64,000 nucleotides of DNA from Psammoneis japonica (Eukaryota). Shown here piece after piece: positions 4,231 through 61,200 of the stretch (position 1 is the first letter of the stretch; each line of letters opens with the position of its first letter). The notes under the pieces were generated by a model. It was not told the DNA's origin, did not search any database, and was given only the letters and a program-made list of their open reading frames with translations. The DNA is taken from assembly GCA_008632985.1 (NCBI GenBank), contig QPGO01000019.1, positions 434,001-498,000 of the forward strand, read 5' to 3'. Both the position numbers and the translations under genes were made by a program.

Positions 4231-4519
4231 TTGCGGAGGTGTGATGAGGTTTCAGCCAGATGGGCGGTTTCCTTGGCAGTTCTGAGAAGAAGGAGCTGAA
4301 TGCTCCAGAGCTGAATGCTCCCAATTGCCCATGAGAGAAGCATTTGTTGATGAGAATGATTGTGTTTTGCCTGAATGAAATGATGGATGTTTTGCTTTTG
4401 ACTGTTTTGAAAATCCTGATGAATTGTTGCCTGTTGAATTTGAAAATGATGCAGAAAATTGCGTGAATGAAGAGGGGAGTGTGTTTGATCAAGACGCATT
4501 TGAACACAACATTCCTCTC

Positions 4520-7500
4520 CCCAAAATGAACTCGCAAGTCTCGCGCACCGCGTTGGTCCCATCTACACCACTTGTTGCAAAATCGATTCAACGGCATGAG
4601 TCGAATCGTGTGATGCATGTTTGTTTGATTCTGGAGGATCTCACACTGTGATCTCGTCTCAAGTTTTACCTTGTTGAGCCACACCATCCATTGACGAACA
4701 TGGAGTCCGAGCTTTTCAAACAGTTGCAGGTCCTTTCCAGTCGGGTCGTTGTTGGGCAGCCTTGTCAAGCGACATCGTGTTACCAGAATTCGACAAGACT
4801 CGGAGGATTGACGGCTGTGTGGCTCACGTGTTCGATGCTCTGTGTGCACATGATGTCATTTTGGGTCAAGATTTCTTGGACAAGATTGGCCTCAACTTGA
4901 GTTGCGACACAAAGACGCTGTGATGGCTAGACCGTGTGATCCCAATGAAGGAACCTCGTCATTGGTCCAAGTCCCACAATTGGCGTGTGGCTCTAGACCA
5001 AATGGATGAATTTGATGAAGATTGTGAAGACAAGTTGGACTGCGGACACAACGACGGATGTGATGCCTGCATGCTCGACACCAAGCACAAAGCGACAGGT
5101 CCGGCGGAAGTGGTTCGGACCTCAGACCATCTCACGGAAGAGCAAAAGAAGAAGCTGCCATCAGCATTGGAAAAATGTTCAACCTTGTTTGACGGAACGT
5201 TGGGCCACTGTTCTCATGAAAAGGTGCACCTTGAAGTGGATGAAAATGCTGTTCCATGTCACTCAAAACCGCTTCCTGTTGCTCAAGTTAATGAAGAAGC
5301 GTTCAAAAAGGAGTTGAAACATTTGGTGAATCTCGGCGCACTGCGACCATGTGGACCTGCGGAATGGGCAGCCGGTGCCTTTGTTGCTCCAAAGAAGGAT
5401 GGCTGGGTGCGATGGGCATCCGACTTTCCAGAGCTCAACAAGGTCCTCAAGCAGAAAGTGCATCCTCTGCCAGTTGTTCAAGATGTGCTACAATGGAGAG
5501 CGGGCCACAAATTCTTCACGAAACTGGATCTCACTGTGTTCTACTGCAACTTGGAATTGGACAATGAAAGCAAGGAGCCAGCTACGATTGCAACTCCCTG
5601 CGGAAAGTTTCAGTGCTGTCGCATGGCTGTGGGATTGAAGCCAGCTCCAGACATTGCTCAATCCATCATTGAAAAGATTCTGCATGGTTTGGATGTTGAA
5701 ACTTATGTTGATGACATTGGCGCATTTGACACTGACTTTGATTGCCATCTCTCTTGTCTTGACAAGGTGCCACATCATCTCAAGGAGAATGGTTTGAAAG
5801 CCAATCCCTTGAAATGCGAATGGTGTGTTCAAGAAACCGATTTTCTGGGGCATTGGCTTGCTCCAACTGGCATCAAACCGTGGAAGAAAAAGGTCAAAGC
5901 AATTCTACAAATGCAACCTCCACGGAATGCCACTCAACTTTGATTGTTTCTCAGTGCAGTGACCTGCTGTCGCAATGTGTGGCCTCGCAGTTCTCACCCA
6001 CTTGCACCTCTGACTGAGTTGACAGGCAAAAGTCAGCTCCATTGGACAGAAGCATGTCAGAAAGCATTCAAAGAGATGAAGGCAGCAATGTCGCGGCAGA
6101 AGCATTGATGGCCCATCCCAACCACAACCTGCCATTCCATGTCTGCACCGATGCGTCAGACTGCCAGATGGGTGCTGCCATTGTTCAAGATGGCAAACCT
6201 GTGGCGCATTGGTCTAAGAAGCTCTTGGCGGCTCAACGCAACTGCTCAACAATGGAGAAGGAACTCCTGGCCGTCACCATGTGCTTCAAGGAATTTCGCT
6301 CAATGTCACTCAGTGCTGACATCACGGTTCACATTGATCACAAAAATCTCACCTTTTGCACTTTGAATGCGCAGCGCGTCCTTCGTTGGCAACTGTTCCT
6401 TGAAGATTTCGCGCCCACGTTTGAACATGTCAAAGGCAAGGATCACGTGCTCGCCAATTGTTTTTTGCCTTTGGAGGGGAAGAGACGCGTTCCAGACGCA
6501 GGTGGGAATCCGTGTGACATTGGGCCCATGGAATTCTGTGTGCAAGCTCCGCAGCAAAATCACACGGCAATTAAAATGTCAATGATCGCCAACAGAAAAT
6601 GAGGCAATTTTGCGAACACACAAGCTCACCCATGATCGAAGCACATCATTCATTTTTTGCTTGGCCAGTTGCATTCTTCAGACATTGAAGAATGTAACTG
6701 GTGCATTGTTGTTTCTGTAAATTCGTCACATGAAACGTCTGGGGCTTCGCAAAACAGCGAGTCTGGACAATTTTTTTAAAACACACGTAGAAATGTACGT
6801 GAGAAACACATGACGGATGATGAAAATTGTTTGTGTCACACGTCAGTGCTGCGAGCTGCCACCCAGGGCTGGAACGCGTCAAGAGCCTTGGGCCAAGCAG
6901 TGAACGCAAAGGAAAAATCATTCATTTTAAAAAGTTGGATTCCAGTGAACTGAGCAGGACCGAGGAAGAGGAAGATTTGGAGTTGGGCGCTTGCAGGTTC
7001 AAGTGTTGCCGTGCTCCAGTTGATCCCACTGATGAGTCTCACGCCGCCTCTTCCTCTCTGTTTGACAAGCCCGAATTGTTTGAATGCTTTTTGAATTGCC
7101 CGATGCTGGACAAAATGCCGAATCCTGCCGAGATGCTGAGGATGCAACAGTTCCAGTTTGAAGACCTCCAACTGAACCAGCAGAGACAACAGAATCCGCA
7201 GCAGTTCGTGGTCAAGATTGTGAACCATCGTCCTCTCATTTGTTGTCGTTTGCATCTGAATGATCCACCTGGAGCCTGGAAAATTTGCATTCCTGCTGCG
7301 TTGTTGCCGGATGTTGTTGCATGGCATCATCGCGCATTGGGCCATTGTGGAGTCGTGCGATTGCATGAAAGCATTCGGAATCACATGTGCCACCCCACAT
7401 TGCATCAATGTTGTAATGAATTTGTTTGCAATGCATGTCAACGATTTAAACAACTGGGTTCTGGATGTGGAGAGTTGCCTCAACGTCAAGCGCCGTTAGC

Positions 7501-8290
7501 TCCATGGTCGGAAGCAGCGGTTGATCTCATTGGACCGTGGAAAATGCCAATTCAAGACCAAGAGATTGAACTCAGTGCTCTCACTTGTGTTGATGCTGTC
7601 ACTGGATCAACTGAACTCATGCACATTGACAACAAAACTTCTCAGCAGCATGTGACCAACAAGTTTCGCAATCTTTGGTTGGCTTGTCATCCCAGACCAA
7701 ATTGATGCATCCATGACAATGGTGGAGAATTCAGTGGTTGGGAATTTCAAATGCCACTAAATCAAGCGGGCATTGCTGATGCACCAACAACATCTCGAAA
7801 TCCCACAGCCAACTCTGTTTGTGAACAAATGCACCAAACGGCAGCTGATGTCTTGTGCACTGTGGTTGTCGCTAACCCACCTTTGAATGTTCAACAGGCC
7901 AAGCAGATTGTGGACAATGCCCTTGCCACAGCCTCTTGTGCTTTGCGATGCTCCCACTCAAGGTCGATGGGTGTTTCTGGTGGAGCTCTGGTGTTTCAAC
8001 GTGATGTGATTTTGGACCTGCCTGTTGTCTCCAACCTTGCAACGATTCAAGCAAACCGACAAGTGTTGATCAATGAGAACCTGCGACGACAGAATGCAAA
8101 GCGTCATTCCTGCAATTGTCCAGTTGGTCAAGATGCATTGATCAAGTCGGTGGATCCTTCAAAGTTGGAAGAACAAGCTTGTGGTCCATTTCAAATTGTG
8201 CAAGTCCACACCAACGGGACTGTTTTGGTGCTGTGAGTGCTGCAAGTTGTTGAACGAATTGACACTCATCATGTGGTGCCACGTTAGAGT
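4520..8290 (+). pseudogene. Gypsy pol relic: aspartic protease, RT, RNase H, integrase
   Basis: LFDSGGSH protease motif at ~4625; RT PKKDG, TKLDL, YVDD, FLGH; RNase H TDASD, EKELLA, DHKNL; integrase H..LGH, C..CQ, VDLIGP, DNGGEF, NP.ANS.CE. Confidence 0.95.
6484..6880. mobile_element. 397-bp non-autonomous TIR element (MITE) nested in Gypsy pol
   Basis: Perfect 12-bp TIR GACGCGTTCCAG/CTGGAACGCGTC (imperfect to ~22 bp); 4-bp TSD AAGA at 6480-6483 and 6881-6884; removal restores ...LEGKSLG... in pol. Confidence 0.9.
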
Positions 8291-8388
8291 TGAGGGTTTC
8301 TTCCCAACATCTGGGTTCCCTTCTCCGTGCGCATGTGGTTTGAATTTTAGTCAAGTGGTTCCAATGGTGTGCGTGTTCCCAGCACCAT

Positions 8389-8400
8389 GGAGGGGAAGAG
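8389..8400 (+). other. Polypurine tract
   Basis: GGAGGGGAAGAG directly abuts the 3' LTR. Confidence 0.9.
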
Positions 8401-8575
8401 TGAATGAGACAGGCACATGCACTCTGTGACTGAGTGTGCCCTCTCTGATGTGTGTGTGTTGACTGACGTGTCAGACACACCAAGAGCTGTCAGGTTTGTC
8501 CCGCATCAGTGATGATCGGGTCTCTCCTTGGTTTTCTCACAACCTTTGTCAAGTCATCTCAAGCTAGATCTTGCA
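8401..8575 (+). repeat. 3' LTR
   Basis: Matches the 5' LTR and is followed by TSD TCGGG. Confidence 0.97.
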
Positions 8576-8587
8576 TCGGGAATGTCC

Positions 8588-8674
8588 CTGAAAATCGGCT
8601 CTTACGTCGTGTGATCAGTGAAATGACGTGACTTCATTGGACTTTGCATGGCTTTGCGAGGCTGCCCGCCAGCT
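8588..8674 (+). repeat. ~87-bp dispersed direct repeat, copy 2
   Basis: Matches 1908-1994. Confidence 0.85.
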
Positions 8675-9705
8675 AAATCCGTCAATGGTTTCTCCAAAGT
8701 TGCATGAAAACAAGTCGCACAACTCGGCAAGGACACTCCGCTGGCCAGTGGCTCTCGACAGGCAACAAAATGAAGCAATCTCAAATCGAATTGTGCATCA
8801 CGCTGGCCAAGGAAAAACAACACATTGTTTGTTCATGATCAAAAACAATGCCTGGGTTCTGTTGCGAAATGACTGCTCCGATTGTGTCACCCTTTTACAC
8901 ACTTTGACACCTCTGTGCTTCCACCATGCAAAACTCATCAAACCACAATGAGAAAAAGGCTCCCGTGGCACCACCATTGCATCTCCGTGACTGTGCACAT
9001 GTGGCTCCACCAACCATTCAGGAATGCCAACCATGTGTGGATTGATTGTGCCCCAGCAGAGTTGTTGGTCTGAAGCTTCTAACGAGTCTCTGCCAAACTG
9101 GCAAAGAAATGAGACCAGCATGACCAGATGCATGCATGGCAGTTCTGGACAATGTCACAGAGAAACAGCAGGTGCAGGATCACACCTGGGCTCCATGCAC
9201 TTGCATGGAGCTGTGAGAGCTCTGTGGCCATGCACCACAAAGCCTGAGAAGAAGCCCCCCCCCCCCCCCCGAAGAACCCCAAATGATCAGCACAGACTTG
9301 AGCCCAGCAGATTTGTTTCCTCCTGTGTTTTTGCTTTGGTGTTTTTTAGATGCTCAGACCAAGGAGATGTTGACACATCAACCCACCAAGGAAGGCCCGC
9401 AATCGCCATGTTTTGGTGGCAGAGGCTCTCTGTTCTTTATAAAAGGTTAACTGCACTGTGTCCAGCTAGCCAGAGTGGGGCTAGAGCAGAGCAATCTGTT
9501 CGTTCATTATTTTACACATCACCGTCTGTCCATCCCACCGTTCCACTCATCGGCGTTGCGTCGGCCGGTTGTCGGTTTGGAAGGTTGTCATTTGTCATAA
9601 AGAAAAAGAGAGCACGGGACCAAGGCACAAGCCGTTATTGTTGCTTTCTCTCTTGCTTTCTCTCTACATACCGGTAGTAGTTCGTTGCTTACTATTCTTG
9701 TTGGC

Positions 9706-14069: not shown

Positions 14070-17000
14070 ACAACTGCTTCTTTTCTCACCACCTCGCATC
14101 TCGCACACCAACAACACAATGCACTCTCCTCAGACACTGGCAATTGGGCAAGCAATGGGGAGATGGGGAAGAGGCAGTGCCCACCCATCAGAGGGGGGGG
14201 GCATCATGTTTGTTGGCTGTGGTGCCCTCGCACACTCCTCTCTGGTGCTCTTTTGTTTTGCACAAGAAAAGCAGCAAAAGCAGTGCACACGAGCTTTCCT
14301 GCAATGTCGCTGAATGCCATGTGAGGATCCCAGTTTCTGCAATTCTCCTGAGTGCTCCCCACACAGGTGTCACTGTGCACAATGTGAGCCAAGTGCTGCT
14401 GAGGTTCTTTCTGTGAAAGCGAGGTCACCAGTGCCAAAACATCTTTTTTTTGTCAGCCAAAAATGTGATGTGAAACAAGCTGGCATGTTTGTTCATGCAA
14501 AAAATGGTTTTTTGGGGCACTTGGTGGGAAAGGTGTGCCAAAAACTTGATCTCCCCACCTTGCCCTGAAAAGAGAGTTTGTTCTGCCCTTTGCAAGTCAC
14601 ACGCGTCACATGCTTGCTCGCATGCTCTGCAGCTTCCATTGTGCAGCACTGGGCAATGCCACAATTTTCAACTTAGATGAACCTCTGAGACCATTAAAAA
14701 TTCTCATCACTTTTTGTGCACAAAAGGCCATTTGGGGTGCCACTTTGCCAACACTCTGCAGTGCAATGTTGTTCTTGTTTGGACCTCCAAGCTTCAGCAC
14801 AAAAAATGGCTTCAAGCATGCTCAAAAGCATCAAGTGCATTTTTTATCTTGAGCAATGCATGCATTGCTTGTTACCTTGCTGCAAAGAATCTTGTTGTTG
14901 TGGAGCCACTTCTGGCCCACACACTTTTCATTGCTGCAACAAAGTTCTTGCACATTTTCAGCATTTGAAAATGATGACAACAGAGCTGCCACTTCGGCTG
15001 CTGCCCTCAAGATGACTTCTGGCAGAACAAAGCATTCCAGCACAATCTCAAGCATTGTTTCTTCAAGTCCTGCAGTTGCTGGCTGGACTCTGAGGTTCAG
15101 GCTTTTGCAAGCACATGCTTTGCCTGAGAAGAGAGCGCACATGCTGTGCAATGTGTTGCAGATGTGCCCTGGTGTGTTCACCCATGCCCATGCACTCAAG
15201 GCTTTGCACAAGACTCAACTCATCTCTTTTTTTTCAGACTGAAACAATGCCACCTAAAAAGCTTCAATTCCTCACACAAAAGAGATGCAAAAATTCTCTG
15301 TTTTCCTCTGCCTGTTCAGTGATGCAGACCAGGCCGCACACATCTGTCGACCAACAAAACACAAATTGTGCTTGCCTCCCTCCTCCACATTTTTTGCATC
15401 TTGCAATGCAGCAGCTCTCACAGCTTTCTTCCACTGGGGCATCTCCTTCTCCAGGTGACTCCATCCCCTCCCCACCTGCAAGCAAACATGCTCTTGTCAC
15501 TTGCCAAGGAGCATGTGGAAGACCACATCTGGCATGCATGCTGCTGCCCTGCATGACCAGGTGGCACACCCACTCCTGGGTGGGATGCATTTCAGTTGAG
15601 AACAACCAACAAGGAGGAGGGTGGCTCTTGAAAAGAAGTTTCTGTGTCATTTTGCAACTGCCATGATGTGCTTGGTGGCTGCCAGTTCCTTGTCCACTGC
15701 CGTTCCTGCAGTCTGCATTCACATCTCCTTGAAACAGCAGTCTCAAATCAAAGTTGTGCAATGGCACTGACTCACAAGACAGCAAGAGAATGTTCAAAAC
15801 AAGCAAAAAACTGATTGTTTGTTGTGCGGTGGAGATCCTGTGTGACCATCTTTCTTGTCCCGAAATCAAAGATTGCACACCAAAGTTTGCTTTGACACAA
15901 CAATCTGTTTCTGTCACAGACATTGAAATGTTGAGAGCTGACCACTTGAGTCAGGCTGCTGGTCGAATTGAAGAAGAAAAGATTCCAGCTGTCCAGTGAG
16001 AGCTTTGACTTTTTGGAGATGTGATCTCAGCCATTGTGCAGTTGCACAATTCATCAAGCTGGCATGGAAATGAGAGAGGTGCCAATCATCTTTCATTGGT
16101 TTTGTGAGCCAATCTAAAGAGCTGCTCTTACAGAGAGATCCTTGCATTGGAGAACAGCACAGAATCAACCTGCTTCTTGGGGTTCAATGTTGCTGTTTGT
16201 GATTGTTGACCTGTGATGCTGCCAACTTTGATTGTCCATGCACACATCAGGTGCTTCACAGACTGCAAAGAGAGCAAAAATCCAATCTGCAGTGTCAAGA
16301 AGCCAGCTGTGCATTGTTTGGTGTTTGTCCAAACTTTGTTCTCATTTGATTTCTGGAAGACAAAACCTCACACCAACCATGATGCCTCTCTTTCCAACCT
16401 CTTGGTGTCACACACAGCAATGAAGAAATGTCATCTCATGTGAAGCCTTCCTCGTTGGACCTTGGAAACATTGCTTGTGTTCATTGGTGATTGCCGCCCC
16501 ACAGCAGAAAAAATGCAAGCCCACTTTGGAGCCATGTTTTGTCCTCTCCAAAGCCTTGGGCTCCACTTGCTTGCCCCTTTTTGTCAGGAGATGCTTGAGA
16601 GGAGTGTTTGGAACATTCTCTGGAAGGGGGCATGCAGGGGCTGACGACTCCACCACTGCAATGGTGCCTTGTTCCAAGGTGGTGGCCATTGTCATTTTTT
16701 GGTTTCTGGACAAAGGCTTTGGTGCTTTGCATGCAAAAAAAAATTGTCGCAGGGAGAATGGTGCGCAACATCATGGTTGCATCACAACTGTGAAATTGTT
16801 TTGCAGGATTTGGTCACAATGAATTGCATGTGTGCAATTGTGGTGCAATCAGCTGTGGATGATGCCTCCAAACAGAGGTGTGTTTTTGTCATGTCCCCTC
16901 TCCTTTGAATGCATTGCAGCAGGAAGCAAGAGGAGAGTCTGATGTGTGATTCATGCACATTCAAAGTGCAAGCTGCACAAGCTCTTTTGTTTGCAAACTC

Positions 17001-18560
17001 TGGTTTGCAGCCAGCTGGGAGACTCCAATGCTGCTTGGCAAACCTGTTTGCAAGCACATTTTGCAAACATTTTGCAAACCAAAGAATGAACCCAGTTTGC
17101 AAACTTCTTTGGCAAACTGCAAACACTGCTGTGAAGTCAAGCCCCATGTGCCAGCACCAGCCAAAACCTTTTTTCTCAGTTGAAAATTTGATGTGTGCTC
17201 AGCTGGCACATTTGTTCATGCAAGAAACAGTTTTTGTGAGGCACATGGGAAAGGTGTGCCAAGAGCTTGATCTTCCCACCTTGCTCTGAAAAGAGTTTTG
17301 CCCTGCCATGTGCAGGTTGTGTGCCTTGCTGCTTGCTCATGTGCCGCTGTTGCTTCCATTGTGTGGCAACTGGCAATGCTGCGTTGTCATCAATGCTGTT
17401 GCAGACAGCACAAGGTGTGCAATGCAGCATTTTCGACTTGGAGAAACCACTGAGATTGTTGCTGCAATGTGGGCTTTGCAGGGCTGCCATCATGCAAATG
17501 TCCTCAAGACTTTCTGCATGCCAAAGGCCGCTTGGGTGCTTGCCAACCTTCATGCTCATGTTTGGAGCTCCAAGCTTCAACACAAAAAACAGCATCAAGC
17601 ATGCTCAGAAATGCCAAGTGTGTTGTTCTTTATCTCCAAATGCATGTGCTGTTGCCTTGCTGTGAAATTGAAGATGGCAACAGAGCTCTCACTGGCTGCT
17701 GCTCTCCAGACAACTCCTGGAGCAAAGCACACTGGCGCAGTCTTAAGTGCTGGTGTTTTTAAGTCCTGCATCAACTGGCTGGACTCCAAGAAGGGTCAGA
17801 GGCTTTTGCAAGCATGCTTTGCCTGACATGAGAGCACACACTGTGTGCAATCCATTGCTGAAGGTGTGCCCTGGTTTCAACCATACACTCAAGGCTCTGG
17901 ACAAAAACTCATCTCCCTTTTTCCAGACTGAAACAATGCCACCAAAAAGGTTTCAATTCCTCACACAAAAGAGGCAAAGACTCTCCATTTTTCTCTGCCT
18001 GCCTGATGATGATGCAGACCAGGACAGACAAATCTGCTGTCAACCAAAAAAACAAATGTCTGTGCAATCTGGCAGCAATTTGCCTTCCTCCTGAACATTT
18101 TTTGCATCTTGCAATGCAGCAGCTCTCTCAGCTTTGGCATCTCCTTCTCCACATGGATCCTTTCAAAACTGCAAGCAAATGCATTGTCACTTAAATTGGA
18201 GCATGTGTGGAGGCGCAGACCTTGCGTGGCATGTCTGCTGGTGCCCTGCATGACCAGGTGGCACACCTGCTTCTGGGTGGGATGCAGTTCATTTTAGAAT
18301 GACCAACAAGGATGGCGGCTCTTGGCAGCAAATGTTCTGACATTTTGCAACAGCCATGATGTGCCTGGTGGCCAGGAGTTCCTTGTCCACCACCACGCCA
18401 ACAGTCTGCTTCACGTCTCCTGGGAACAGTCTCAAATAAAACAAGTTGTGCAATGGCAATGACTCGCAGGACAGCAAGAGAACCTTCAAAGCTTGCACAA
18501 AACTGATCTCTAAAAATGATTTTCGGAGGCTGTGAGAACCCATGTGGGCCTGCGGAGACA
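14070..18560. repeat. TpA- and CpG-depleted repeat block 2 with a diverged ~1.35-kb direct duplication (~14470-15815 vs ~17195-18510)
   Basis: Shared anchors TTTGTTCATGCAA..GGAAAGGTGTGCCAA, CAGACTGAAACAATGCCACC, GACAGCAAGAGAA at ~2.7 kb offset. No recognisable protein. Confidence 0.85.
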
Positions 18561-28840: not shown

Positions 28841-29129
28841 TTGCGAGTTGCACTTGCTATAGCGTCCTTGGGAGGCGAGCGAAGCTAAGGAAGCGCAGTA
28901 TGCGGGTTGCGCTCTAGCTAGTGGTTATGACATGGTACTTTATTTTGCCCTTACGATGATACGTGACGGACGGTGACGGTGAAATAGAGCAAAACAGCAA
29001 ACTTTGAACGAATCTGTACTGTATCTCGTCTCGAGAGCGCGCGGTCTCGTCTGTCCGATGATGTGTGGAGGGAAAGAGGCGAGCCGAGGGGGGGCAGTGG
29101 ATAGATGGTGGATGGTGGACGGTGGAAAA

Positions 29130-32100
29130 AAGGGAGGGACATGTGAGACAACACAGGATGAAAGTGCAAACAATGAAGATGCAGATTGAAGTTGTGACTG
29201 CTGATCCTTGCCCGGTCATTTTCCTTGGCGCAGCTGGCAGGGACAGTCGACCCTCATTTGAGAAACAGGATTTGAGCAACCCAATGCTCTGGTGGCAATG
29301 TCACCAAAGGCATGGTCAGTGTGGAACAAAGTCAATCAATTGCAAGGTCATTTGGAGCCCAAGAATGACACCTGGTTTCAGCTCAGTGTGCACTCCGCCA
29401 ACAAAATCTGTGCCTCATGATTGTCGACTGTGCACGATCTGTCCAGCCAGTGGCCGCAATTTGTTTGGAGGGGCCAAGTGAAACTGAGTGCAGCTGATGT
29501 GGAAAATTGACCGGGGAATCAACTTTGCTCTTTTTGCACTTCACTCAAATGTGTTCCACAGGTTGTCCTCCAATTGGTTTTTTGACAAGCCGGTGCAGCG
29601 GCGCACAAGGCACCACTCCACCAGCAATCATTTGAGGTTGCGTGTGCACCATTTGAGAAGGCAAGGAGTCATCACAAGACCGCTGCCAGGAAAAATCATT
29701 GGCTTGTTCACAGGACAAATTTTGTTGTGATGGTGGGCCGGGCATTGTCATCTTTGTGAAGAAGCAGCTGTTGGAGATGGCACCCTTGGTGTGCACCCAG
29801 AGCTCTCAGCTTGAGACACTTTCCATTGTGACATCCCAAATGCTTGGATGATTTTCCCAGAGGTGAAACAGAATTTGTGTGCCAGTGCTTGTTGATGTCA
29901 ATGAAAGACAATGTGTTGAACTGTGTTGGTTGTCACACACCAACAATCTTTTTCATCAGACAAATGAGCACAACAAAAGATCAAGATTGAGGTTGTTGTC
30001 ATCTGCTGATTTCCTGCAACCTTGGATTTGCCATGAGTTTGCATGTGAGTTTGGCACCCACAATTTGTCCACAGCAAATGGCAACTCGTCTTGTCCGGGA
30101 GCATCCCTCTTGCTCAATCACAAAGTGTGCTGGACATGCAACACAACATGAATTTTCCATGTGCTTGTTTGTGAGCCCCTTGGTGACCTGAGGTTCCATT
30201 GCTTCATCTTCATTTGTCTGTGTGTTTTGTGAAGCATGTCTGTGCCATCTGCAGCTGCACCAACTGCCTCATCCACCGTGACCAGCCAGCATCTTCCATT
30301 GGACAAATGGAGTGCAAATGAATCAAGCCAATGACTGTTTTCATTGTCATTGCACATGAGAATTGCTGGTGTCCTTTTGCTCTGGCAACACAAACACCTT
30401 GTTCTTTCACCATTTTGTTGAGCTTCCCATGATGAGAATGAGGATTTTGACAGTGTGATTCACTGCATCCATGTTCTGACAGAAACAAGCCCTGGATTCT
30501 GCTGCCTCCAGTCTCACAACAGACTCCGCCTTCCACTTTTTGGAAAGAAATTAATTCCCCTTGACATTCTCAGGTTTGAACTTGAACGGTGCCTTCTTTT
30601 TTTCTTGAACCACCAAATCTGGCTGGTCATCATTCTGCTGGAAATTGCAGAGGTGGAAAATCACCAAGCCATGGAGTGCCAAGTGTGCCCATTTTCAAAA
30701 CTCTTTTAAAGCCCTGCAGTTGTCTCTGACCAGCTTGGCAATGGACCTTGCTCAGAGGCAAGAGCTCAGCGTGACAGCAGCAGAAATCACCAAAGTGCTG
30801 ATGAAGCAAGCCCGATGCCCAAGCCAGCAGCTCTTGGAACAACTTTAGAACAACAGAGAAAACTTGTGATGCCCTGCAATCCAAAAGCACAACAGCAACT
30901 CCAACAATGAGAGCGTGCTTTGCAGTTGCTTCCCACCAGTTTTCACAATGGATCACACTCAAAGACAAGAACACAGGGTGATTGCTGCAGTCCTCAACCA
31001 CCAAAATGGGAATGAAGCCAGCCCAATGCCCAAGCCAGCAGCTCTTGGGACAACTTTGAAACAACAGATGATTGACATCTGTGGCTCCAACAATGAGAAG
31101 ATGCAAGTTGCTCACACGCACAGCTCAGGAACACATCAATTTGCACATGCACAACACTCTGTGCAAATCCACACAAAAGTCACTGCTGTCACAGCAGGTC
31201 TGCACAATCCCTGCATTGGGCTTTCCAACAAAAAAATCACTTGAGGCATTCACAGAACAAAGAGGTGAAGGCATGACGATTTGATTTTTCAGGATTTTCT
31301 GCTGTGCGAGAAACGTGCAGTGCACTGCATGCCTCATTGTCAAAAATCAGCGACATGACGGTGGTGCGTTGTCGCAATGATGGCAATGACAGCAACGTGT
31401 CCGAGAGTCATTTGTCATTGCAGACATTTGGTTTGTTGAAAGTTCAAGAATGTGTTCAGTCATGAAAGTCCCCATGAGCAACCTCCATTCAAAAGCAAAA
31501 CTTTTCACTGATGAGGAGCTCTGTTCACAACCATCATTTTATGAACTCAATTGTCGAACGATTGTGAGTTTGTCCAGGGGACTTTCTTTACATGTGTGTG
31601 TTCTTCACAGTGCCATTGATTGACGTGTCAAGTGCCTGTTGCCAAGTCATCCTCTGTCAGCATCTGAAAATTACCATCGTCATCATTGGCGTTGAGAATG
31701 GCAATTTGTTGTGCAAATCACAGTCAATTGCACGGCTGTTGTCTGTCCAACATTGCACTTCTGTGTGCAACTCATGTGCGTGCCTTAAAAAAGATTCTAC
31801 AATGAGTCATTCTAAGGTCAAAATGATGACTTTCAATTTGTTCATTGTGACAGGGATTCACTTAAAAGGCAGCACAATTGCTCAATGAAGATTCTACAGT
31901 GCACTGTTCTCACATCAAAATGACTTTAAGCTCAGACATCATGACAAGCACTCACTTTAAAAAGGGCAGTGCTGACTCAAGTTTGTGTGTGCAAAACTTC
32001 ATTGGTCCCACAAAGCTTTCACAGGACAGCTGATGTGAGAGACTTGCTTGGGAGATTAAGACACCTTCCAATGGTTCCCCCAAATGACCAATGCATTGCC

Positions 32101-35030
32101 ATTGTGACAACCAGTCAGCTCTCACTTCATCTGATGGTTGAGTGTCGACAATTGGTTGTTTGTCAGATTGTCGCCAAAACAAATTTCACATTCATGGAAA
32201 AATCGGCACACCTCCATTGGGGTTGCTTTACGTTGTCCTCCATTGCTTGCACAACACATCCATTGTCAACTCATCACATGTGCATGACATTGCTGTCAAC
32301 GTGCCAGAAAAACGCGTGCAGCACCACACTGTGTTGTCTGCTCTGCTGCTGGGTGCAGTCGAGCTCACTCTGTCAGCACAAGCAAACACAGCATGCCTTG
32401 CTTGCATGGAAACATTGCAGCACTGCAAGGACAGCAAAGAGGCTGAACAAGAAGCCAGCACACCAGGCATTTGTTCCCACACAACACCGCACTGCATTTT
32501 CTTCTCCATGGTCTCATGAGTTTGTCTCATGCTTTGCATGTGCCCAACTGGGCCAGCCAGCATGGTGCTGTCAACACATCCAAAGTTGAGCTCAAGAAGC
32601 AAAGCAAAGTGCTCTTTACCAAGAAATGGATCACTGCAGGTTTGGAAGAGGAGATGCAACAGCACACTCCTTCCAACGAGGAGACAAGACACGAGAGAGA
32701 CAACAAGCGTTACAAGCAAGCCTCTTTGAGCACAAGGCTGGTGCACAGCTGTTTCCTCAAAGCCAAGTGTTTGCAAGTCACATGCAGCTTGTGCAGACAG
32801 CAAGGGAATTTCTGGAGATGCAGGGAGCAGTGGGAATGCAAGAACAGAAAAGTGTGTGCTGCAGCCAAGAGTTTGGAGATGGCCCATTGTTGAGAAGGAG
32901 ATGCACGGTGTGACAGGTGCTGCCAAAGCAATTGGTGGACAGGCAATTCCACTCAAAATCAGCAGATGGGAAGAGGGCAGACAGAGATGACAGGGTGTGG
33001 AGAAAGGCAGAGCAGGAGACATCAGAGTGGTGAAGGTCGGAGGAGGAGAACCAGGGAGGTTTGGTGGGTTGAGAGAGCAGGCGGAGGAAATTGCAGAGCC
33101 AAAGAGAAAGTGATGGGCAAAGAAGCTGAGACCACCAAGGTGATCAACAGCAAAAGGAAGAAGGAAGATGCTGTCATTGTTGAGCAAAGCAAAAATGAGG
33201 GATCCATCAGCAGAGGAAGCAGAGGGGGCCAAGAAACTTTGATCTCACACCACTCAAATGGTGTGCTTCAGTTAAAATGAGGGAAGTGGGAGCAGGCAGA
33301 CCAGGAGGAGGGTGAGAAGGAGCTTGGGGTGTGCAGTGACATAAACTGCAATGCAGTGATGGCAGGAAAAAGTGGAGAGAGAAGTGGGAGGTGGGACAGA
33401 AATGCCAACATCAGTGGGGTGAAGGAGCAGGCAGGTGGGGAGCAAGTTTGCAGGCTCAAGGTGCACGTCATTGGAAGAGTGGCAGAGCTGGGCAAGGTGT
33501 CCCAAGGTCTGGGCTGCAATGAAGAGGGTGTCACAAAGACCATTGGAAAGCTTGGACTTGTGAGTGCAAAGGCAAGAGAAGGTGTGATCACTGCATGTGC
33601 CAAGGGTGGCATGGCTGCAAGGACGGGGTGTGCCAATGAGGAAAGGGGGGAGGATGGGAAGAAGAAGCTTGCATTGGGCGGTGACAATGCAGGCATCAGA
33701 AGCAAGGCAGGAGCTCTGGAAGCAATGGGAAAGGGAGCGAAGAGGAAGGCTGGCAAACAGAGACAGCAGCAAAGGCAGGGAGACTTGCGCGCTGGAAGGA
33801 GCACTGGCAAGAGCAGAGGCAACGACTTGCTGACATGAGCTTCCCCACGTGGAGACAGGAGGTGCTCTCAGTGCATGACATCATGCAAAGGTGGGTTTTC
33901 TGTTCACAGCATTGGTGGTGTGCAAGGGATTTTTGAAGCAAGTTTCCACTGTGTGCAAAGAGAGTGCTGGGCTGGCCAGCAAGAGCAGCTCACACAGCTC
34001 CGCTGCAGAGAGAGAGAGAGTTGGACAAAGGAAGAACATCCAATCTGGCAGCTCCAACCTTGGCTGCTCTTGTTTGTCATGCTTGATGGAGAGCACTGGC
34101 TCTGTTCATTCAAGAGAGAGAGAGAGAGAGAGAGCAGAGCAGAGCTTCGACCTCCACTTGACTGCAACTGAATGGGCGCTGGACAACAGGCTGTTGTTGT
34201 GTGCACACATCATGCTGCTGTGCAGATGCATTGTTGGCGCGCAGCCACCAGAGCAGCCACTCCTTTCTGTTGGGTTGCACTGGCCACCAAGCAGCAGCAG
34301 AGGTGGGTTTCCACCATGACACTCACTTCTGAGAATTGTTTTTTTTTTCCTTGTGCCAAATGATTGATGTGATTGTTGAGCAGCGTCATGGCGGAAAGCT
34401 GCGCTTTTTACAGAGATTGGCAGCCGTTGCCCCATCAGCACATGTGGGCCAAAAAGTGTCACTTGAAGCTTGTTTGAATGTGCAGCTTTCATGGTGATGT
34501 GGTGGCCCTGGCAAATGGGTTGCCAGAATGCACACATGTGCTGTTTGGGGGTGTTCTGAGAGGCAGGTCAAAAAACAACACACAGAGTGTGCGAGCTGTG
34601 GGGCTGGAGAAAATGTGCAAAAAAGTTGTTTTTAAAAAATTGGAGCTCTCAACTGCAAGATCTGTTGTCAGCAAAAGCAATGTTGTTTTGTGCATTCCTG
34701 GTTTTGCATTTGAAATCTGTGGTCCTTGGGTGACGTGACTGCAGCCCGCATCATCTTGACTGCTGGCCTTGGAATTTTTGGAGGTCTTGCTTGTTCTCTT
34801 CTCACTGGTGTTTCGATTTTTTTGTTTTGACTGGAATGATGAGTTGTCATTGACACAATTGATTTTCCTGCATTTGGGCACTGGGCTTTCAGATTCAGGA
34901 TGTTGTTGTCGTCGTTTCGTTTTTTGCAGCACGAATGCAGCTTTGGCGCTGCCGCCCGCCAGTTTTGTGAGTCAGAAGATCGAATCATCATCGATCTTCA
35001 TCATAATCTCGTTTGATGATGCTGTTTCGT
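29130..35030 (-). mobile_element. TpA/CpG-depleted block 3; possible decayed non-LTR retrotransposon
   Basis: Composition is clear. Minus-strand GHQG (~30180) and SKHLG (~29835) may be RT G.RQG and KYLG after back-mutation, which is weak. ~50-bp repeat at 30810/31021; (GA)n at ~34007 and ~34112. Confidence 0.45.
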
Positions 35031-37281: not shown

Positions 37282-38039
37282 TTGGTAGGTGGTCAGTATT
37301 GGATCATGAACCACCATGTAGTCATGATTATTGATTTGCGACAAAGCAATGATGTATGCATGGAACAAGAAGGCCGACGATTAGCTATTAATCGACAGTT
37401 TTAGAGAATGATTGAGATTACCTTATCATCGCAGGATTATTGTTAGGGTTTTTGTTGTATCAACCCAACAAACGGACAGCATCTGTGACTCGGTAGATGG
37501 GGCTAATTATCATCCTCATCAGATTCGCATAAAGCCTGGAATTGCACAATAGCATGGGAAGCAAGCACTGTCATCGGTCACAGTACGAGATTTCACGACT
37601 GTCTTCTTTCCGGAGTTAGTGAAAAGATTGAAACTCATCTTTCAACTTACTAGTTCCTACTTTCCGCCGTACCAAAGGCTCTTTCACAGTGCAAAACATA
37701 CTCGGCATCAACATTTTCCATCGGCATTTTGAAATCGTCATTGCTGATCAATTTGAGGGGAATCGAAAAATTCAGCTCACTTTTTGCTTTTTATTCGGGC
37801 TGCTCACAGAAGCTTCATCGTGTCGCCTGGCTACTTGTATTTTGAGAAAACGCCGCGTACATCGTCTCCTTGCGAACACGCTTCGCATCCGCACCGACAG
37901 TGCTCAGCCTTCAATCTTTCATCTGACGTGTCGTTGCAACCAATCGAACCTGCCTCCACCATTGGGGTGCCCACTGCACTCACTGGCTGACTTGGGCAAT
38001 TTAGAATTTACTCCAAGGGGGCTTTCTCATCAAGTCTAA

Positions 38040-39290
38040 AATTGATGTTTTCACTTTGGTTCAACAGTTTCTCTGGTTGCCTTAAAGAGCACATGCCGCA
38101 AAGGATGAGGTGCATGTGCTGATGTCCAAATGACTGGCTTTCACATTTCCAAACACCTGGAGTGGAACAGATCTTTTGGCACTGTGCAACATTGCCAGTG
38201 TTGCCTCCCCCCAAACCCTGGGTGACTGTCAACTCCCAGCCTGTGGTGGAGTTTGCATTGCAGCAGTGACGATGAGTGCAGCACAACTTGTTGTCACTTG
38301 CTTGGCTGGCAATTGCAAGCACAAGTGCAAGCAATCATCCCACCATTGATGCCAGGGGCACTTTGCCTTTGAAGCATCACCATGTCAGCCAGCCCAAGGG
38401 GGTTGGTGGCTGCAACCCCAAATGGCACCTGTCTCGTCATGATCCAGCTGGGGGGGGATTGATTGATTGATTGATTGACTGCATCTGGGATCATGCAGGC
38501 TGCCCAGAAACTTTGAGAGTGCATCAAGTGAATGTGGCAATGGAGTTTACAAAATGATCTTGACAGATGAAAGGAAGAGTGAAAACAAGTGCCTCATGTT
38601 GGGCACCAAACAAAGCCATCAGAGTTTTCTCTCTTTCTTGACCTTTGCTGCTGTGCCAAAAATCAAGAAGCATGCCTGAAGCAGCTGGGGGGGAGAGGCA
38701 CTTGGCACTCCAGTCACACTTCTCATTTGAAAGACATCAAGTCAGTTGAAGGCTCGTCACTCCAACATGGTTCAAGCAAGAAGATGCTGCTGCTGGAGCT
38801 GTTGTTTTTTCATTTGTTGGGCACTCTGCTTTGTTGAGAGTGTTCTCCAAGCAACAGCGTGTGTCTCTGGCACCACACTGAGGAGAATCATGAGATTTTT
38901 TAAAAGCATGCCATTGATTTTGAGCATCATTGCACATGCCAAGGGCACCCTGTGCTGTTGAAATTCTGTGCAACTGTTCCAGAGCAGCAATTGTGCGCGT
39001 GCTGCTGCTTGTTCTTGTTCGCCCCCAAAGTTCTGGCACCACACTGAGGAGAATCATGAGATTTTTTAAAAGCATGCCATTGATTTTGAGCATAATTGCA
39101 CATGCCAAGGGCACCCTGTGCTGTTGCACTTCTGTGCAACTGTTCCAGAGCAATTGTGTGCGTGCTGCTGTTTGTTCTTGTTCACCCCGCCCAAAGTTTG
39201 TCGCACTTTTGCCCCTTGACAACCAGACTTGAGGAGAGCAAATTTCTGAGGAGTTGCATCTTCTACATCCCCACAAGACTTTGCAGCTAG
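38040..39290. repeat. TpA/CpG-depleted block 4 with a near-identical 166-bp tandem duplication (~38867-39190)
   Basis: CTGGCACCACACTGAGGAGAATCATGAG... recurs 166 bp apart. Confidence 0.85.
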
Positions 39291-39561
39291 AACAGCATCC
39301 CTCGAGACTTGTCAGTCAATGCCATTGTGAAGTCGATTCGTGTGCTCCTCCACCAGCCATGGTGACGAGAGAACTTGTTTCCTCGAGACAACAGATGGGT
39401 CGGACAGACGGCGATGGACCAGGAACAGAAAAATCTGAGTGAGATTTTGCGGCGTTCACACGTTGAACATCCACGCCATGGCGATCTTGTTGCTCATTTT
39501 CGCTTGCTGCCGAGTGGAAGACTTGCAAAACTGATTGGTATCTATCAACCATCTCTTTACT

Positions 39562-43697: not shown

Positions 43698-44139
43698 GGT
43701 GTGTTTCAAAAATGGCCTTGTAAATTTTGCACGAGCGAGCAATGTGATGAATGCTGACTGAGACTGTTCCAACACGGCATTTCCACGGTACAGTATCGGT
43801 TGATGCAAAAATGAGCTTATTAGTGAGTAGAGCTAATAATGAAAAAGGATCATATAAGATGTATATATTCTTTTATAATATCAATTTCCATATTAATTTG
43901 GTACGGAGTTGCACAACGGACGGATCTCGTTATGTGTCACACGATTATTTATGGCGCAGCCCGTTGAAAATTTGAATCTGAACATTTAGATACGAATGCG
44001 AGTATAACCCCTAGCGAATCGGGAGTCATTCTGAATCATTTGAAATTTCATCGAGATTGTATACAATGAATACCAAATTTTGGACATGCACGATTTGGTG
44101 CGTGACACGGTCATTTCCTGCCAAAAAATTCAAATGAGA

Positions 44140-45640
44140 AATCATTGAGACAAACCCTTTTTGTGTGCTCCAACTTGCTCAAGTGGCAAGAAGAGCCAAC
44201 ACAAAAAGAGTAGCACCAGGAAAGCAAAATGCAAGCTCAGCTCATTCACCACCACAGGAGATGGCATTTTGAAAAATTGTCTAAAGTCTAAAACAACTGT
44301 TGAAAACTCGGTTGCTGGGTGCTGAGATTTGGCCTTGAGTTCAGCGCGTGCCTCGAGCAAAGACAGACGTCCACTGCAAATTTATGCACAAATGTGCCAA
44401 AAGGAGACCCAGATTTTTGGACATGTTTGGCAAAAGGAGACCCAGATTTTTGGACATGTTTGGGACATGCCTGGGCACAAGAAGGTCAGAGCAAGAAGTG
44501 GCGGAGTTTTTCTTGTGTGCCAAATGCCTCTGAAAAAGAAAAAATTTTGAGCAGCTCTCATTCCCTCTCTCAGCAACACATCATTTTTGTTGCTCTTACA
44601 CAGGGAGGGAGAGCTCCTTGAGGGAGATGTTCAGAGTGGCTGTTTTGTCCTCTCTGTTTTTGGATTCTCACTTTTTTGCTTTTTCACAAGTTTGGTTGTG
44701 TTTTTTTCAGTTGCTTGTCTTTTCTTTGGCTGTGTGGGCACTCACTCTTTTGTGTTGTTCTCTTTTTTTTGTTGCACTCACAAGCTGTTTGACATGACTG
44801 ACCCCTTCACAAACTGATCTGCAAGTGCTGAAAGTCGGTTCCCACAGGCGGCTCGACAAGATCTCGAGCACTTCAACTTCAGTGTGGAACCAATGACAGA
44901 GAACACCAATGTGTTTCGTGTGTGGAGGCCGACATCTTTGCCATTTTTGTGAACTTGAGGCATGCTTGATTGACTCTGTTGACAATTGAGGAAGAAATTG
45001 TGCCATCTTTCACATCAGAAAAGGCTTTGGACTTGACAGCAGCAGGTGCATGAACGTTCTTGCACCCAAACACATTGCACTGAATTTCTTTCAAAATCTC
45101 TTGGATTGGAATCAGGTTTTTGGGCTGAACTCACAAGCTGTTTGAGACAACAAAGATGTCATTTGAGCTGTGCTTTGTTTGGAAAAAGTGAGTGTGCAGC
45201 TTCTTCCAATGGCTTTTTTTTGTTGCTCAAACAACGTGTGTCGCAGCTTCAAAATCAAGTTGAGTTTGGCATCTCTTCAACATTCTCCTCTCAAAAAGGC
45301 AAGGGGCTTCTTTGGCCTTTGCCAGCAGACACTGCCAATGGCACAGCCAGGCATGCACATTGTGGCAAGCTCTAGAGTGAGAGGAGGAGAGGCTTCTTTT
45401 TTGTGGCGACTGCCTCTGTCATTCTCGATGACACATGTGTGGAGTTTGTTGGTGATGGTGTTGATGCACTTGGTGCAATGTGTGCTTTTCCCTGCGTCTT
45501 TTGAGTGGCCTGCCTTGTCACAAAAAGAGCAGTGCCAATCATGAGGTTCTTACAGACACCAAGTTTTCTACTTTGGGTGCCATGTTACAGTGTCATCGCA
45601 CCGGCGCGTTGAGGCAGGAGGTGGTGCCGTTGCGTGCATG
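44140..45640. repeat. TpA/CpG-depleted block 5, with a 33-bp tandem duplication at ~44398-44463
   Basis: Composition; CAAAAGGAGACCCAGATTTTTGGACATGTTTGG twice. Confidence 0.8.
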
Positions 45641-58289: not shown

Positions 58290-61200
58290 TATAAGCATTC
58301 AGCATCACAACAACAAAGCTCGTCCACACGACATGCCAAAGACAATCAAACAAACAACACCACTGTCATTGAATTGTGATTTGTGTTCCTTCTCATGTTT
58401 TTGCTCTGTTCATGCAATCTTGTGCATCACAAGGGGGATCCATGAAACTCCCATCTCCAGCAGAGTTGCAGGAATTCCTGAATTTCAATTGACGGCTCAA
58501 GCCCTGCTCAAAAATTCTGTCAATCTGCCTCGCAACAATTCAGAGTTGAGCCGCTCGAGAACAATGCTAAGGACAAAAGTGCCAAGAAGGTCAGAATGAG
58601 AGAATGGCCTTGGCAGAACCCTTCCAGTTGGAGGAAGAGGAGTGCCAGGCACAGCTGTGAAAAAACACAACAAAACAATGGTGCTTTTGACTGCTCAGCG
58701 TGTGGGGCAGCGACACAACTGAGGCTCTTGTTGGTCTGACAGAATGTGCTGAAAAGGAGCTGGTGGCAAAAAAACAACACTTCCTGCTTGCTGTCATCTA
58801 AACAGCTGAAAATGAGTCTTTGTGAAAAAACTGCTGCTGCAGGGGCCAACAAACACATGAGTCATGACGGTTGGTGCTGCGCAAGCTTGCTTTTTTGCCA
58901 CAGCCCCCATCAGAGTTGTGCAACGTGTGCCAGAACTTGCAATCTTTCACTCAATCATTAAAGTGCACAATTGCAATTCTGCAGCTAGCTGCACTGTCCA
59001 ATGAGCTGGGTGGTCCAGCCAAAAAAAAGCCATCAAGTTGTTTTGGCACAGCTTGTGTGTCTCAACAAGGTGCTTGATGATCACAGTGTGTGCCCCTCAT
59101 TGGCTTGGCAATTCTTTGTGGTTGACAAGTGAACAACAGAAACCAATTTGTGTGCTGTTTTGTCACACTTTGGTGTCAAGAGCTGCGCCTTGGTCAAGTC
59201 AGCCCTCTCTCCCACAGAAAACCTGATGGCAAGACTGGGCCAAACATCTCATGATTTTACAATTTTCCTGTGCTTTGCCCACGTCATTTTGTGGTGCCTC
59301 TGAGACCCCCCAAACACTTGCAAGTGTGTCCAGCCCACATCAGGGCAGTTGGATCTCTGCACGCTGTGAGCTGCACTTGCCAACCTCCTTCAAACACCAG
59401 TTGTTGGATTTGGCAAAATGTTGTCATTGTTGTTTGACAGACCCCACACCATTTGTTGCCAAACTTGCACCACTTCTTGGCTTGTGGCAGGTGAGCCATG
59501 ACTTTCCAGGAAATGCTGATGATTGGCACATTTGACTGGCTGTTGACACACATTGGCAGTTGCTGTGTGCCAAAAATTGTGCACAGTCACAACTGCCTGT
59601 CATCCCATGCACTCTGTGATGTCTTGCAAAACAGCAAAAGCTTGACGTCTGTCAACAAAAATTCATTTTGGCAAACACTGTGCACATTCAGTGCAGTGCA
59701 TCCTTTTTTCAAAACACTGTGAGCTCCCAAAAGATTGACCTTGGTGTCCCAATGATCCACCCTCAAGAAAATTGCCAGCCCATCCTCAAAAAGATCTCAA
59801 ACACCAGCAGCACCTTGTGATGCATGACCAGATGGAGTCACTGTCCAGGTCACTGTCACAACACCTGTGCTTGCAATCTTGTCTTTGTGGTTTCAGAGGC
59901 CACACAAATGGTTGCACTTGCTGCATTGTTTGCCTGTGCTCCCAGTGGCAGTGTCATCATCATTGTCAATTTCCAAATCTGGGTTCAGGCTCATTGTGAT
60001 CTGGGGAGCAGCATCAGAGCTGACATCTGGAGGCTGGGAACAGACTGGTCACAGCAACAGGGGCCCAAATCCATGAATGTCCTCCCACTGGCAGACAACC
60101 AGACCCCAGTCTGCCCCAACATGTGCAAGCATGAGCACAAAAATTTGTTTTTGTAACAAATCAGGATGATTTGTCACAAATCACACCCATTTTTGATGAA
60201 TGGGTGAAATTTGCAAACAAGTGAATGTCCAAGTTTGCAAAGTGAGATCTTGTCAACCAGCCAGCATGGTGAAATTCAACAAGTTCACAGCACCTGCATG
60301 AAATGTTCAATTTGACAGCAGCCATCCAAAGCACATCTTCTGTGATGAAGTGCTGCCATGAAATCTCACATTCAACAATGAAAAGAATTCTGTGCGTGGG
60401 TTTTCATCTGCCAAATTGCCATCAAGCCCAGTTCACAGATCTTGGCACAGCTCACCATGTGGTCTCCCTTGTCACCCAAGTTGTCAAGTCATCCTCCCAC
60501 TTAATTTTCATGGCTGGCTGCAATTGTTCCACACAAATCTTCTAGTTGGCCAAGTCATTCACTCACAATGTCTCATTTGACCCACATGACTGGCTCTCCT
60601 TGAAGAACTTGTTGGCTCTTGGTGACCATCTCTTGCTCTTCCTTGGCATCTTGCATTGTCTCCTGCACCTGCACTCTCCTTTGCTGGGCTTGAGTTGCTT
60701 GGCACAAAGTGCTTGAGTCATCTTGCACACTTTCTCTTTTCTTTGCAACAGCCTCCTTTTCCACATGACCCTTTGCAGGTGATGCTCTCAAGCTTGTTCA
60801 CAACACTCGTCAGAGCTGAGAGTTGCTCTTTTGTCTTGTCACACCCCTGTGTCATCAGAAATGGCAACGCTGCTGGTGTCAGTTTCACATGTCACTTGAC
60901 ATCAATTCTTCATCAAAACTTGCAGCAAAGCTTGTCTTTGCAAAGCATGCCTGTTTTCTCTGGTTGTTGCTTTTGCACCAAAAGCATGAGTGTGACACCC
61001 TGGAAATCTTCTTCTTTGACATGATCTCTCACCTTGATGATGCATCTGCCAGCTTTTTGATCATCAGCCATTCACTTGCTTGGGTTGGTCTGTCTCTGAG
61101 CCACTGTCACAATGTTTGATCATTGTTTTTTGTGTTGTGTGTTTGCCAGCACTCAGCGGCACAGATTCAAAATTGTTCCCCTGAATTTCAAAAACATTTT

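Follow-up and report, generated by a model that had tools for sequence, protein, structure and literature searches.

Repeat-induced point mutation (RIP) of Neurospora and other ascomycetes is a DNA-level process directed at repeats, which acts on both strands through dinucleotide-biased transitions and kills transposons; its target is C:G, and the conversion of CpA to TpA enriches TpA. Erasure of TpA itself has been published only for the chlorarachniophyte Bigelowiella natans, in one 2026 preprint, according to which giant-virus and virophage DNA, once integrated, undergoes hypermutation restricted to TpA (Mettrop et al., bioRxiv 10.64898/2026.01.13.699255). As far as that preprint describes them, the changes are nearly only A to G or T to C, all at TpA and on either strand, they are confined to foreign or repeat-like DNA, and their ongoing rate is about 1000-fold elevated in some lines; the long-term footprint consists of TpA-poor clusters rich in CpA and TpG. 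Its authors propose adenine deamination, with tRNA adenosine deaminases (ADAT2/ADAT3) as the candidate family, and its main text gives no flank data, the words “context”, “flanking” and “trinucleotide” being absent from it. A full-text literature search found no description of TpA erasure in diatoms. Here, we analyse such erasure in a stretch of 64,000 nucleotides from the diatom Psammoneis japonica (contig QPGO01000019.1; hereafter the window), with emphasis on a gene-free block at 29103-34909 (the focal block) and on a broken Gypsy retrotransposon in another block (Block 1), and describe how the survival of TpA depends on its neighbouring bases.

Segmentation with a two-state hidden Markov model (HMM) placed six TA-erased blocks in the window (Table 2), which alternate with gene DNA of TA observed-to-expected ratio (o/e) 0.55-0.67 and CG o/e about 1. 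Per block, TA o/e ranges from 0.05 to 0.11 and CA/TG o/e from 1.5 to 1.9; the pooled blocks have 0.07 for TA, 0.32 for CG and 1.74 for CA/TG, against 0.59, 1.02 and 1.18 in normal DNA. Base composition is equal in and out of the blocks, the losses being of TA and CG only and the gains of CA and TG. In the focal block, TA o/e is 0.05, CG o/e 0.23 (76 CpG), CA o/e 1.88 and TG o/e 1.70 at a GC content of 0.48, and the products are strand-symmetric (648 CA versus 639 TG). All six blocks carry the A:T-to-G:C transitions at TpA only by which the B. natans preprint defines the process. The likeness to that system, so far as the preprint sets it out, comprises A:T-to-G:C change at TpA, action on both strands and a TpA-poor footprint rich in CpA and TpG. 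The host here is a diatom and the targets are Gypsy and unidentifiable repeat islands; moreover, erasure is fuller (TA o/e 0.05 versus a Rho of 0.45 given for the viral region) and CpG decay appears to be superimposed.

A preliminary description of the sequence had estimated by eye that about twenty TpA remain between 29130 and 34930 (5801 bases), and direct counting gave exactly 21: nine TTAA, six TTAC, two CTAC and one each of TTAG, TTAT, CTAA and ATAA. The classes named at that time hold 19 of the 21, the other two being CTAC, and GTAC, ATAT and GTAT, which had seemed absent, are indeed represented by zero sites each. A 5' T or a 3' A flanks 19/21 survivors of the focal block versus 610/1446 TpA in normal parts of the window (binomial p = 5.7e-6), and TTAA makes up 9/21 versus 77/1446 (p = 5.6e-7). 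Sites of the type RTAY (R, purine; Y, pyrimidine) account for 0/21 survivors in the focal block, 4/126 in all blocks and 462/1446 in normal DNA, and those of the type YTAR for 11/21, 70/126 and 241/1446, respectively. At least one T/A flank was found at 99 of the 126 survivors of the six blocks, and the bias is present in each block, including Block 2, where it had been noticed earlier (Table 2). The survivor cluster of the focal block includes two diverged units of about 97 bases, with CTAC and TTAA retained at matching positions.

CA and TG are the common end state of the four cores TA, CG, CA and TG, whose sum is therefore conserved for each pair of flanking bases. The expected ancestral TA number was therefore taken as the four-core sum multiplied by the TA share for identical flanks in unmutated DNA. 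Two references were used for the latter, the normal window parts and 78 related intact Gypsy loci from metagenomes (TA o/e 0.46-1.08). No TA-erased copy occurred among these 78 loci, for which the search patterns favoured intact copies; as the patterns contained a tyrosine, and intact copies were hence selected, the loci serve as a reference and not as a replicate.

Both references returned an identical ranking of classes (Table 1). In accordance with the flank preference suspected in the preliminary description, uniform survival after normalisation for ancestral frequency was rejected for the six blocks (chi-square 197 with the window reference and 171 with the Gypsy reference, 9 degrees of freedom) and for the focal block alone (chi-square 82-83, 9 degrees of freedom, p about 1e-14). 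Bootstrapping over 73 segments of 400 bases gave a survival of 0.25 (0.19-0.31) for YTAR, 0.065 (0.047-0.086) for mixed sites and 0.009 (0.002-0.018) for RTAY, the value for mixed sites being close to the 0.047 expected, by our own arithmetic, from independent half-sites. In the reference DNA, TTAA is the second-rarest class (77 of 1446 TpA; CTAG, 62); among the 126 survivors, TTAA (30) and CTAA/TTAG (31) are the two commonest. One homologous pair within the window allows direct comparison: the unmutated fragment 51600-51900 in normal DNA and its mutated counterpart 58980-59280 in block 6 differ by 11 TA-to-CA/TG and 9 CG-to-CA/TG changes, including one mutated TTAA and one mutated TTAG.

Table 1. 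Survival of TpA by flanking class in the six blocks, relative to ancestral numbers expected from two references
Class	Window reference	Gypsy reference
TTAA	0.53	0.38
CTAA/TTAG	0.41	0.21
CTAG	0.16	0.13
GTAA/TTAC	0.145	0.12
CTAC/GTAG	0.087	0.05
ATAA/TTAT	0.08	0.05
GTAC	0.02	0.02
ATAG/CTAT	0.02	0.01
ATAC/GTAT	0.006	0.005
ATAT	0	0

Survival by half-site extends this ranking to the second base after the adenine: it amounts to 0.44 for TAAA, 0.38 for TAGA, 0.23 for TAAG, about 0.14 for TAAC and TAAT, 0.09 for TACA, 0.009 for TATT and 0 for TATA. TYTARA palindromes, in which both half-sites are TA-R-A, are near-immune (24 observed versus 28.5 expected), and protection is increased by an A at +2 that follows a purine; where a pyrimidine follows the A on both strands (RTAY), 4 sites were observed versus 453.9 expected. 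The products are asymmetric as well. At R-TA-RA sites the gain of CA is 0.296 and that of TG 0.026, and at Y-TA-Y sites TG is gained at 0.262 and CA at 0.078; in Block 1 alone, with its matched Gypsy reference and little CpG loss, the product ratio is about 2:1 in both directions. The base pair that changed is thus the one adjoining the sensitive flank, which confines the effect to the half-site instead of the duplex site as a whole.

This was formalised, on the combined reference, in a likelihood model that lets the rates of TpA and CpG change depend on the flanks. The negative log-likelihood (-lnL) was 6578.8 for a uniform rate, 6560.8 for a rate set by the far flank, 6505.2 for a whole-site rate with products 1:1, 6467.0 for a rate set by the adenine's own 3' base (the adjacent flank), and 6465.2 for the own 3' base and the far flank together, so that the far flank (-2) adds nothing (a log-likelihood gain of 1.9 for 3 extra parameters). 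A-to-G change at 5'-TA-N is governed on each strand by the base 3' of the adenine (T > C > G > A), the fitted relative rates being 2.89, 1.93, 0.96 and 0.40. The preliminary description had supposed that TTA and TAA resist, that survival depends on flanks and that this gives a usable signature, all of which stands. As to its suggestion of A-tract rigidity, C-TA/TA-G protects too, and the effect is hence not purely that of A-tracts.

The Gypsy element of Block 1 provides anchors at the level of codons. Its pol region has named relatives in Mayamaea and Chaetoceros and was aligned to 60 of 120 listed homologues; tyrosine was regarded as conserved where at least 60% of the homologues have it; tblastn of these 60 homologues against the whole window gave matches in Block 1 only. 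The 24 conserved tyrosine positions now read His (CAY) at 10, Cys (TGY) at 10, Tyr at 2, Leu at 1 and Phe at 1. The tyrosine of the YVDD motif (Table 2), which had been reported as surviving in a TTAT context, is there as a TAT codon, at a position where 92% of the 60 aligned homologues have Tyr. Other frequent changes are Val to Ala (7), Arg to His (5), Met to Val (5), Ile to Val (4), Arg to Gln (4) and Leu to Ser (3), i.e. the kinds expected from the loss of TA or CG; Val to Ala occurs 7 times at 25 conserved Val positions, compared with 5 Leu to Ser or Pro at 62 Leu positions. After a pyrimidine, the products of Tyr codons are Cys over His at 8:3, as the flank rule predicts.

All 10 surviving TAs that lie within a codon encode the commonest residue of the homologues (8 Leu as TTA or CTA, and 2 Tyr), this residue being merely the plurality at two of the ten (Leu, 0.39 and 0.45). 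Such a match argues against later creation of these sites by C to T at TCA or CCA, and the survivors are, as judged from their codons, ancestral rather than new. Furthermore, TA density in the older blocks is no higher than in the young one, and survival of TTAA is 0.59 in older blocks versus 0.32 in the young block, these two values being measured against different references. Retention of TTAA is thus no less in older blocks, which fits resistance and not late arrival.

Several observations weigh against the strand-wise flank rule or limit its reach. After a purine, Tyr codons yielded His over Cys at 7:2 where 1:1 is expected, and the dependence of the Tyr product on the preceding base gives only p = 0.07 in Fisher's test. 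Survivor 39093 looks new, as its sister tandem copy has TC (a C/A transversion). Block 1 alone, with the window-only reference, favoured the whole-site model (2481.6 versus 2487.8), and the focal block alone is unable to separate the three models (1263.6, 1265.4 and 1266.6). Discordant CA/TG sites in three repeat pairs, a comparison of low power, comprised 6 R_Y, 10 mixed and 4 Y_R among the 20 of 34 with agreeing flanks. The numbers of ancestral TA are model estimates derived from the composition of the references, some misfit of which shows in the old blocks, where one class has a negative “TA-derived TG gain”. Finally, the evidence is that of one window in a single genome, which holds 126 survivors in total.

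Concerning timing, 7 dinucleotides of the LTR-like (long terminal repeat-like) pair at about 2600-2780 and 8400-8575 read CA in one copy and TG in the other, which implies that the copies mutated independently after integration. In repeat pairs of which one copy keeps TA, the altered copy obeyed the flank rule at 4/4 informative sites. The Gypsy of Block 1 belongs to a very high-copy family, with a contig depth of up to 39086 versus about 60, and contigs from one sequencing run aligned to 1-20000 at 80% likeness reveal 1557 variable positions, of which 1234 are transitions. In run X1, a single contig passes directly from 2798 to 8542, omitting 5743 bases that begin and end with TG..CA, as LTR elements usually do; a version lacking the internal Gypsy part seems to be present elsewhere in the data. 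As to confinement to repeat DNA, Block 1 is a high-copy Gypsy and the genes between blocks keep their TA at the o/e given above; the focal block is without identifiable origin.

Searches within the focal block gave no family assignment. Four of its open reading frames (ORFs) matched no Pfam family at E <= 0.01, and 20 further ones at E <= 0.1 produced one weak match of chance level (ELFV_dehydrog, E 0.055). Neither an Rfam family nor, with Tandem Repeats Finder, a tandem array was found, and tblastn of the 60 Gypsy pol homologues together with the Pfam scans of ORFs revealed no retroelement signature. Comparison in a purine/pyrimidine alphabet with the rest of the window and the 78 Gypsy loci gave a top score of 67.9 versus 69.9 for the reversed control, and hence no homology above that background. 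A transposon origin of the focal block is suggested by its resemblance to the other blocks only. Between 33001 and 34000 the strand is strongly purine-rich (GC skew 0.39, AT skew 0.32), and (GA)n runs are present near 34005-34140.

Erasure of TA can be told from the decay of CpG. Three stretches of Block 1 (1774-2937, 4533-4833 and 6370-6928) have a TA o/e of 0.15-0.17 at a CpG o/e of about 1.0; as TA was lost there with CpG intact, TA erasure is faster than CpG decay and separable from it. CG o/e is 0.13-0.25 in the old blocks versus 0.4-1.1 in TA-erased Block 1. The fitted rates of CpG loss depend on context, being 0.5-0.8 for C after C or T and 0.25-0.5 after A or G. Ordinary CpG decay to CA/TG products would be a second process superimposed on the first; it may proceed through deamination of 5-methylcytosine, by which CpG in methylated DNA becomes TpG/CpA.

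We consider it probable that the focal block is the end state of a context-dependent TpA hypermutation, which acted at the DNA level and separately on each strand of silent repeats. In such DNA, TpA on either strand would be converted to TpG or CpA, an A:T to G:C change, with CpG decay in addition. The adenine of 5'-T-A-N-3' would change fastest with N being T or C, about 2-3 times slower with G and about 7 times slower with A, and an A at +2 after a purine would shield the site further. RTAY sites would in this manner be wiped out, mixed sites would lose the base pair beside the sensitising flank, and TYTARA, to which the resistant TTA/TAA of the preliminary description correspond, would stay practically immune. 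Evidence within the window covers context-dependent survival, product asymmetry, ancestry of the survivors, action after integration, both strands and restriction to blocks. Adenine deamination would be the simplest and most likely chemical step: an enzyme directed to silenced repeats may flip the adenine and deaminate it to hypoxanthine, which pairs with C, and the 3' neighbour would act via the enzyme pocket or via stacking on the target base. That diatoms carry a repeat-directed adenine editor of duplex DNA at 5'-T-A-Y-3', working strand by strand with the +1 order T > C > G > A and leaving TYTARA immune, is a proposal that we put forward tentatively.

Lesions might instead arise at all TpA, with context-dependent repair, or stacking and the ease of base flipping in purine runs, deciding which of them become mutations. 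This explanation is unlikely, in our judgement. In its favour, stacking is strong in purine runs, the protective contexts do set the target A in such runs (TA-A-A, TA-G-A), and an effect local to the half-site is what repair or stacking would give. The 100-fold range of survival and the near-immunity of TYTARA appear large for stacking alone, and the sequence as such is compatible alike with enzyme read-out, base stacking or context-dependent repair. It is improbable that adenine was excised at TpA by a glycosylase or depurinating enzyme and that a Rev1-type polymerase inserted C opposite the abasic site. By the C-insertion rule of Rev1, adenine loss alone would be mutagenic, and the transition and the strand symmetry would be identical; however, abasic sites usually leave a broader spectrum, and the blocks lack a transversion excess, their composition fitting a pure conversion of TA to TG/CA. 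Thymine is quite improbable as the target, read as R-T-A, e.g. by a hydroxylase whose product, 5-hydroxymethyluracil or a base akin to J, mispairs with G. TpA being self-complementary, a T-to-C change preceded by a purine is the same event as an A-to-G change followed by a pyrimidine, and the two strands are indistinguishable in this respect. Yet we know of no simple chemistry that makes T C-like, 5-hydroxymethyluracil is weakly mutagenic, and T-T-A, in which base J lies in trypanosomatid telomeres, is a resistant context in these blocks.

Comparison with the spectrum of DNA polymerase eta (pol eta) had been proposed in the preliminary description, and it yielded no fit. A pol eta-like polymerase making errors at WA motifs during repair synthesis would give A to G at TA, but AA/TT shows no depletion (o/e 1.26 in blocks versus 1.17 in normal DNA) and the loss is confined to TpA and CpG; we rejected this source as having very little probability. 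Even less probable is the absence of any context preference, with survivors mirroring ancestral composition or being later TAs, e.g. from C to T at TCA. Survivor 39093 may be such a new site, and in the focal block, which has no identifiable relative, ancestors could have been TTAA-rich site by site. Against this, two references gave one ranking with chi-square values of 171-197, and both would have to misfit at least 50-fold; TTAA is rare in the reference and common among survivors, the in-codon survivors uniformly encode the homologues' commonest residue, and older blocks have no higher TA density. RNA editing of transposon transcripts by an ADAR-type enzyme, fixed by reverse transcription, is scarcely credible and was rejected. 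Both strands were hit equally (CA and TG gains alike, His and Cys 10 to 10), the LTR-like copies with their 7 CA-versus-TG differences diverged after integration, and the focal block lacks a retroelement signature. ADAR prefers a 3' G, opposite to the 3' preference for T and C found here. In favour of ADAR, the discussion of the B. natans preprint mentions its preference for a 5' U (bioRxiv 10.64898/2026.01.13.699255).

Returning to adenine deamination of duplex DNA, the known editing systems can be set against the flank rule. The likeness to RIP lies in repeat direction, action on DNA and on both strands, dinucleotide-biased transitions and the killing of transposons. Its direction is opposite, as here TpA is destroyed, CpA/TpG accumulate and the target is A:T; fungal RIP was accordingly rejected on the depletion of TpA and enrichment of CpA/TpG in the blocks. 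For amphioxus ADAT2/ADAT3, a tRNA adenosine deaminase found in nature, A:T-to-G:C changes in DNA have been demonstrated, and the contexts of BjADAT2 are given as 5'-GAA-3' for adenine and 5'-TCG-3' for cytosine (PMC10354150). In the blocks, a 5' T is obligatory and a 3' A most resistant. Deamination of the BjADAT2 type was rejected, given that TA-A is the most resistant half-site and that CpG loss is faster after C or T and not after T only. Concerning TadA, whose spectrum had also been named for comparison, the fit is partial: the A48E variant of TadA-8e edits adenine in the YAC context (5' pyrimidine, 3' C) according to a review (PMC13109818), and this overlaps with T-A-C, to which the overlap is limited. 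TadA editors are engineered, act on Cas9-exposed single-stranded DNA and have no TpA restriction, whereas in the blocks T at +1 favours the change no less than C, and ordinary duplex DNA is affected on both strands. The fingerprint matches no characterised deaminase, polymerase or glycosylase known to us and, if our reading is true, would represent a new class of natural double-strand A-to-G editor, a possibility we advance with considerable reserve.

The features of the window that bear on this analysis are collected in Table 2. Block 2 contains a direct repeat pair, 14426-15815 and 17155-18507, with 74-77% identity across three BLAST segments, and a run of 7 N is present at 62097 within block 6. 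Long overlapping open frames without family match occur on both block strands, e.g. 32228-33244 (-) and 33268-33880 (both strands). With TAA and TAG stops erased, the blocks fill with long spurious ORFs that can be mistaken for genes. The stretch 12674-14007 is rich in TA and CG (TA o/e up to 1.2) and has a contig depth of 434-566 versus about 60-130 around it, i.e. it is repeated in the genome but its TA is not erased; no conspicuous terminal repeats emerged from a repeat search in two TA-rich stretches. Among the ORFs and ORF fragments of the gene islands, three resemble leishmanolysin (peptidase M8) and one, an ORF, carries a peptidase M64 domain, the four being located at 41196-42761 (-), 43044-43832 (-), 55239-58160 (-) and 45847-49299 (+). 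The V-ATPase H gene of the window has named relatives in diatoms only (Detonula, Cyclotella, Leptocylindrus, Attheya, Fistulifera, Thalassiosira and others), none of them above 41% identity.

Table 2. TA-erased blocks and related features, in coordinates of the window
Feature	Position	Strand	Basis and remarks
Block 1, younger TA-erased block around high-copy Gypsy	1..9397	+	60 TpA kept; CpG partly lost (o/e 0.4-1.1)
Broken Gypsy pol (protease to integrase)	4379..8281	+	tblastn of 60 homologues; Pfam RVT_1, Integrase_H2C2
YVDD tyrosine, surviving TAT codon	5704..5706	+	TTAT context; translation ETYVDDIG
Block 2	14103..18510	.	14 surviving TpA, 13 with 5' T or 3' A
Focal TA-erased block	29103..34909	.	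Gene-free island between two ORFs; HMM segmentation
Survivor cluster	31540..32057	.	11/21 TpA of the focal block; TTA, CTA or TAA type contexts, RTAY = 0
TA-erased block	37946..39333	.	10 surviving TpA, 8 with T/A flank
TA-erased block	44109..45550	.	6 surviving TpA, 4 with T/A flank
TA-erased block (block 6)	58293..63778	.	15 surviving TpA, 12 with T/A flank

New in the present analysis are the normalisation by two references, the effect of the +2 base, the immunity of TYTARA, the product asymmetry, the codon anchors and the comparison with BjADAT2. With its flank rule quantified, an otherwise anonymous footprint becomes a fingerprint that can be tested and used in finding the enzyme; it is composed of the strand-local +1 order T > C > G > A, the protection by A at +2 and the immune TYTARA palindromes, and this fingerprint argues against pol eta, ADAR and BjADAT2-like activity. 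The rule also explains why TA never reaches zero in the blocks, and it predicts the order in which transposons lose their codons, Tyr and GTA-encoded Val being lost early and TTA and CTA Leu persisting. For annotation, long ORFs of the blocks become recognisable as products of TAA/TAG loss. If the reading is true, a duplex adenine editor of diatoms would constitute a genome defence that mirrors RIP.

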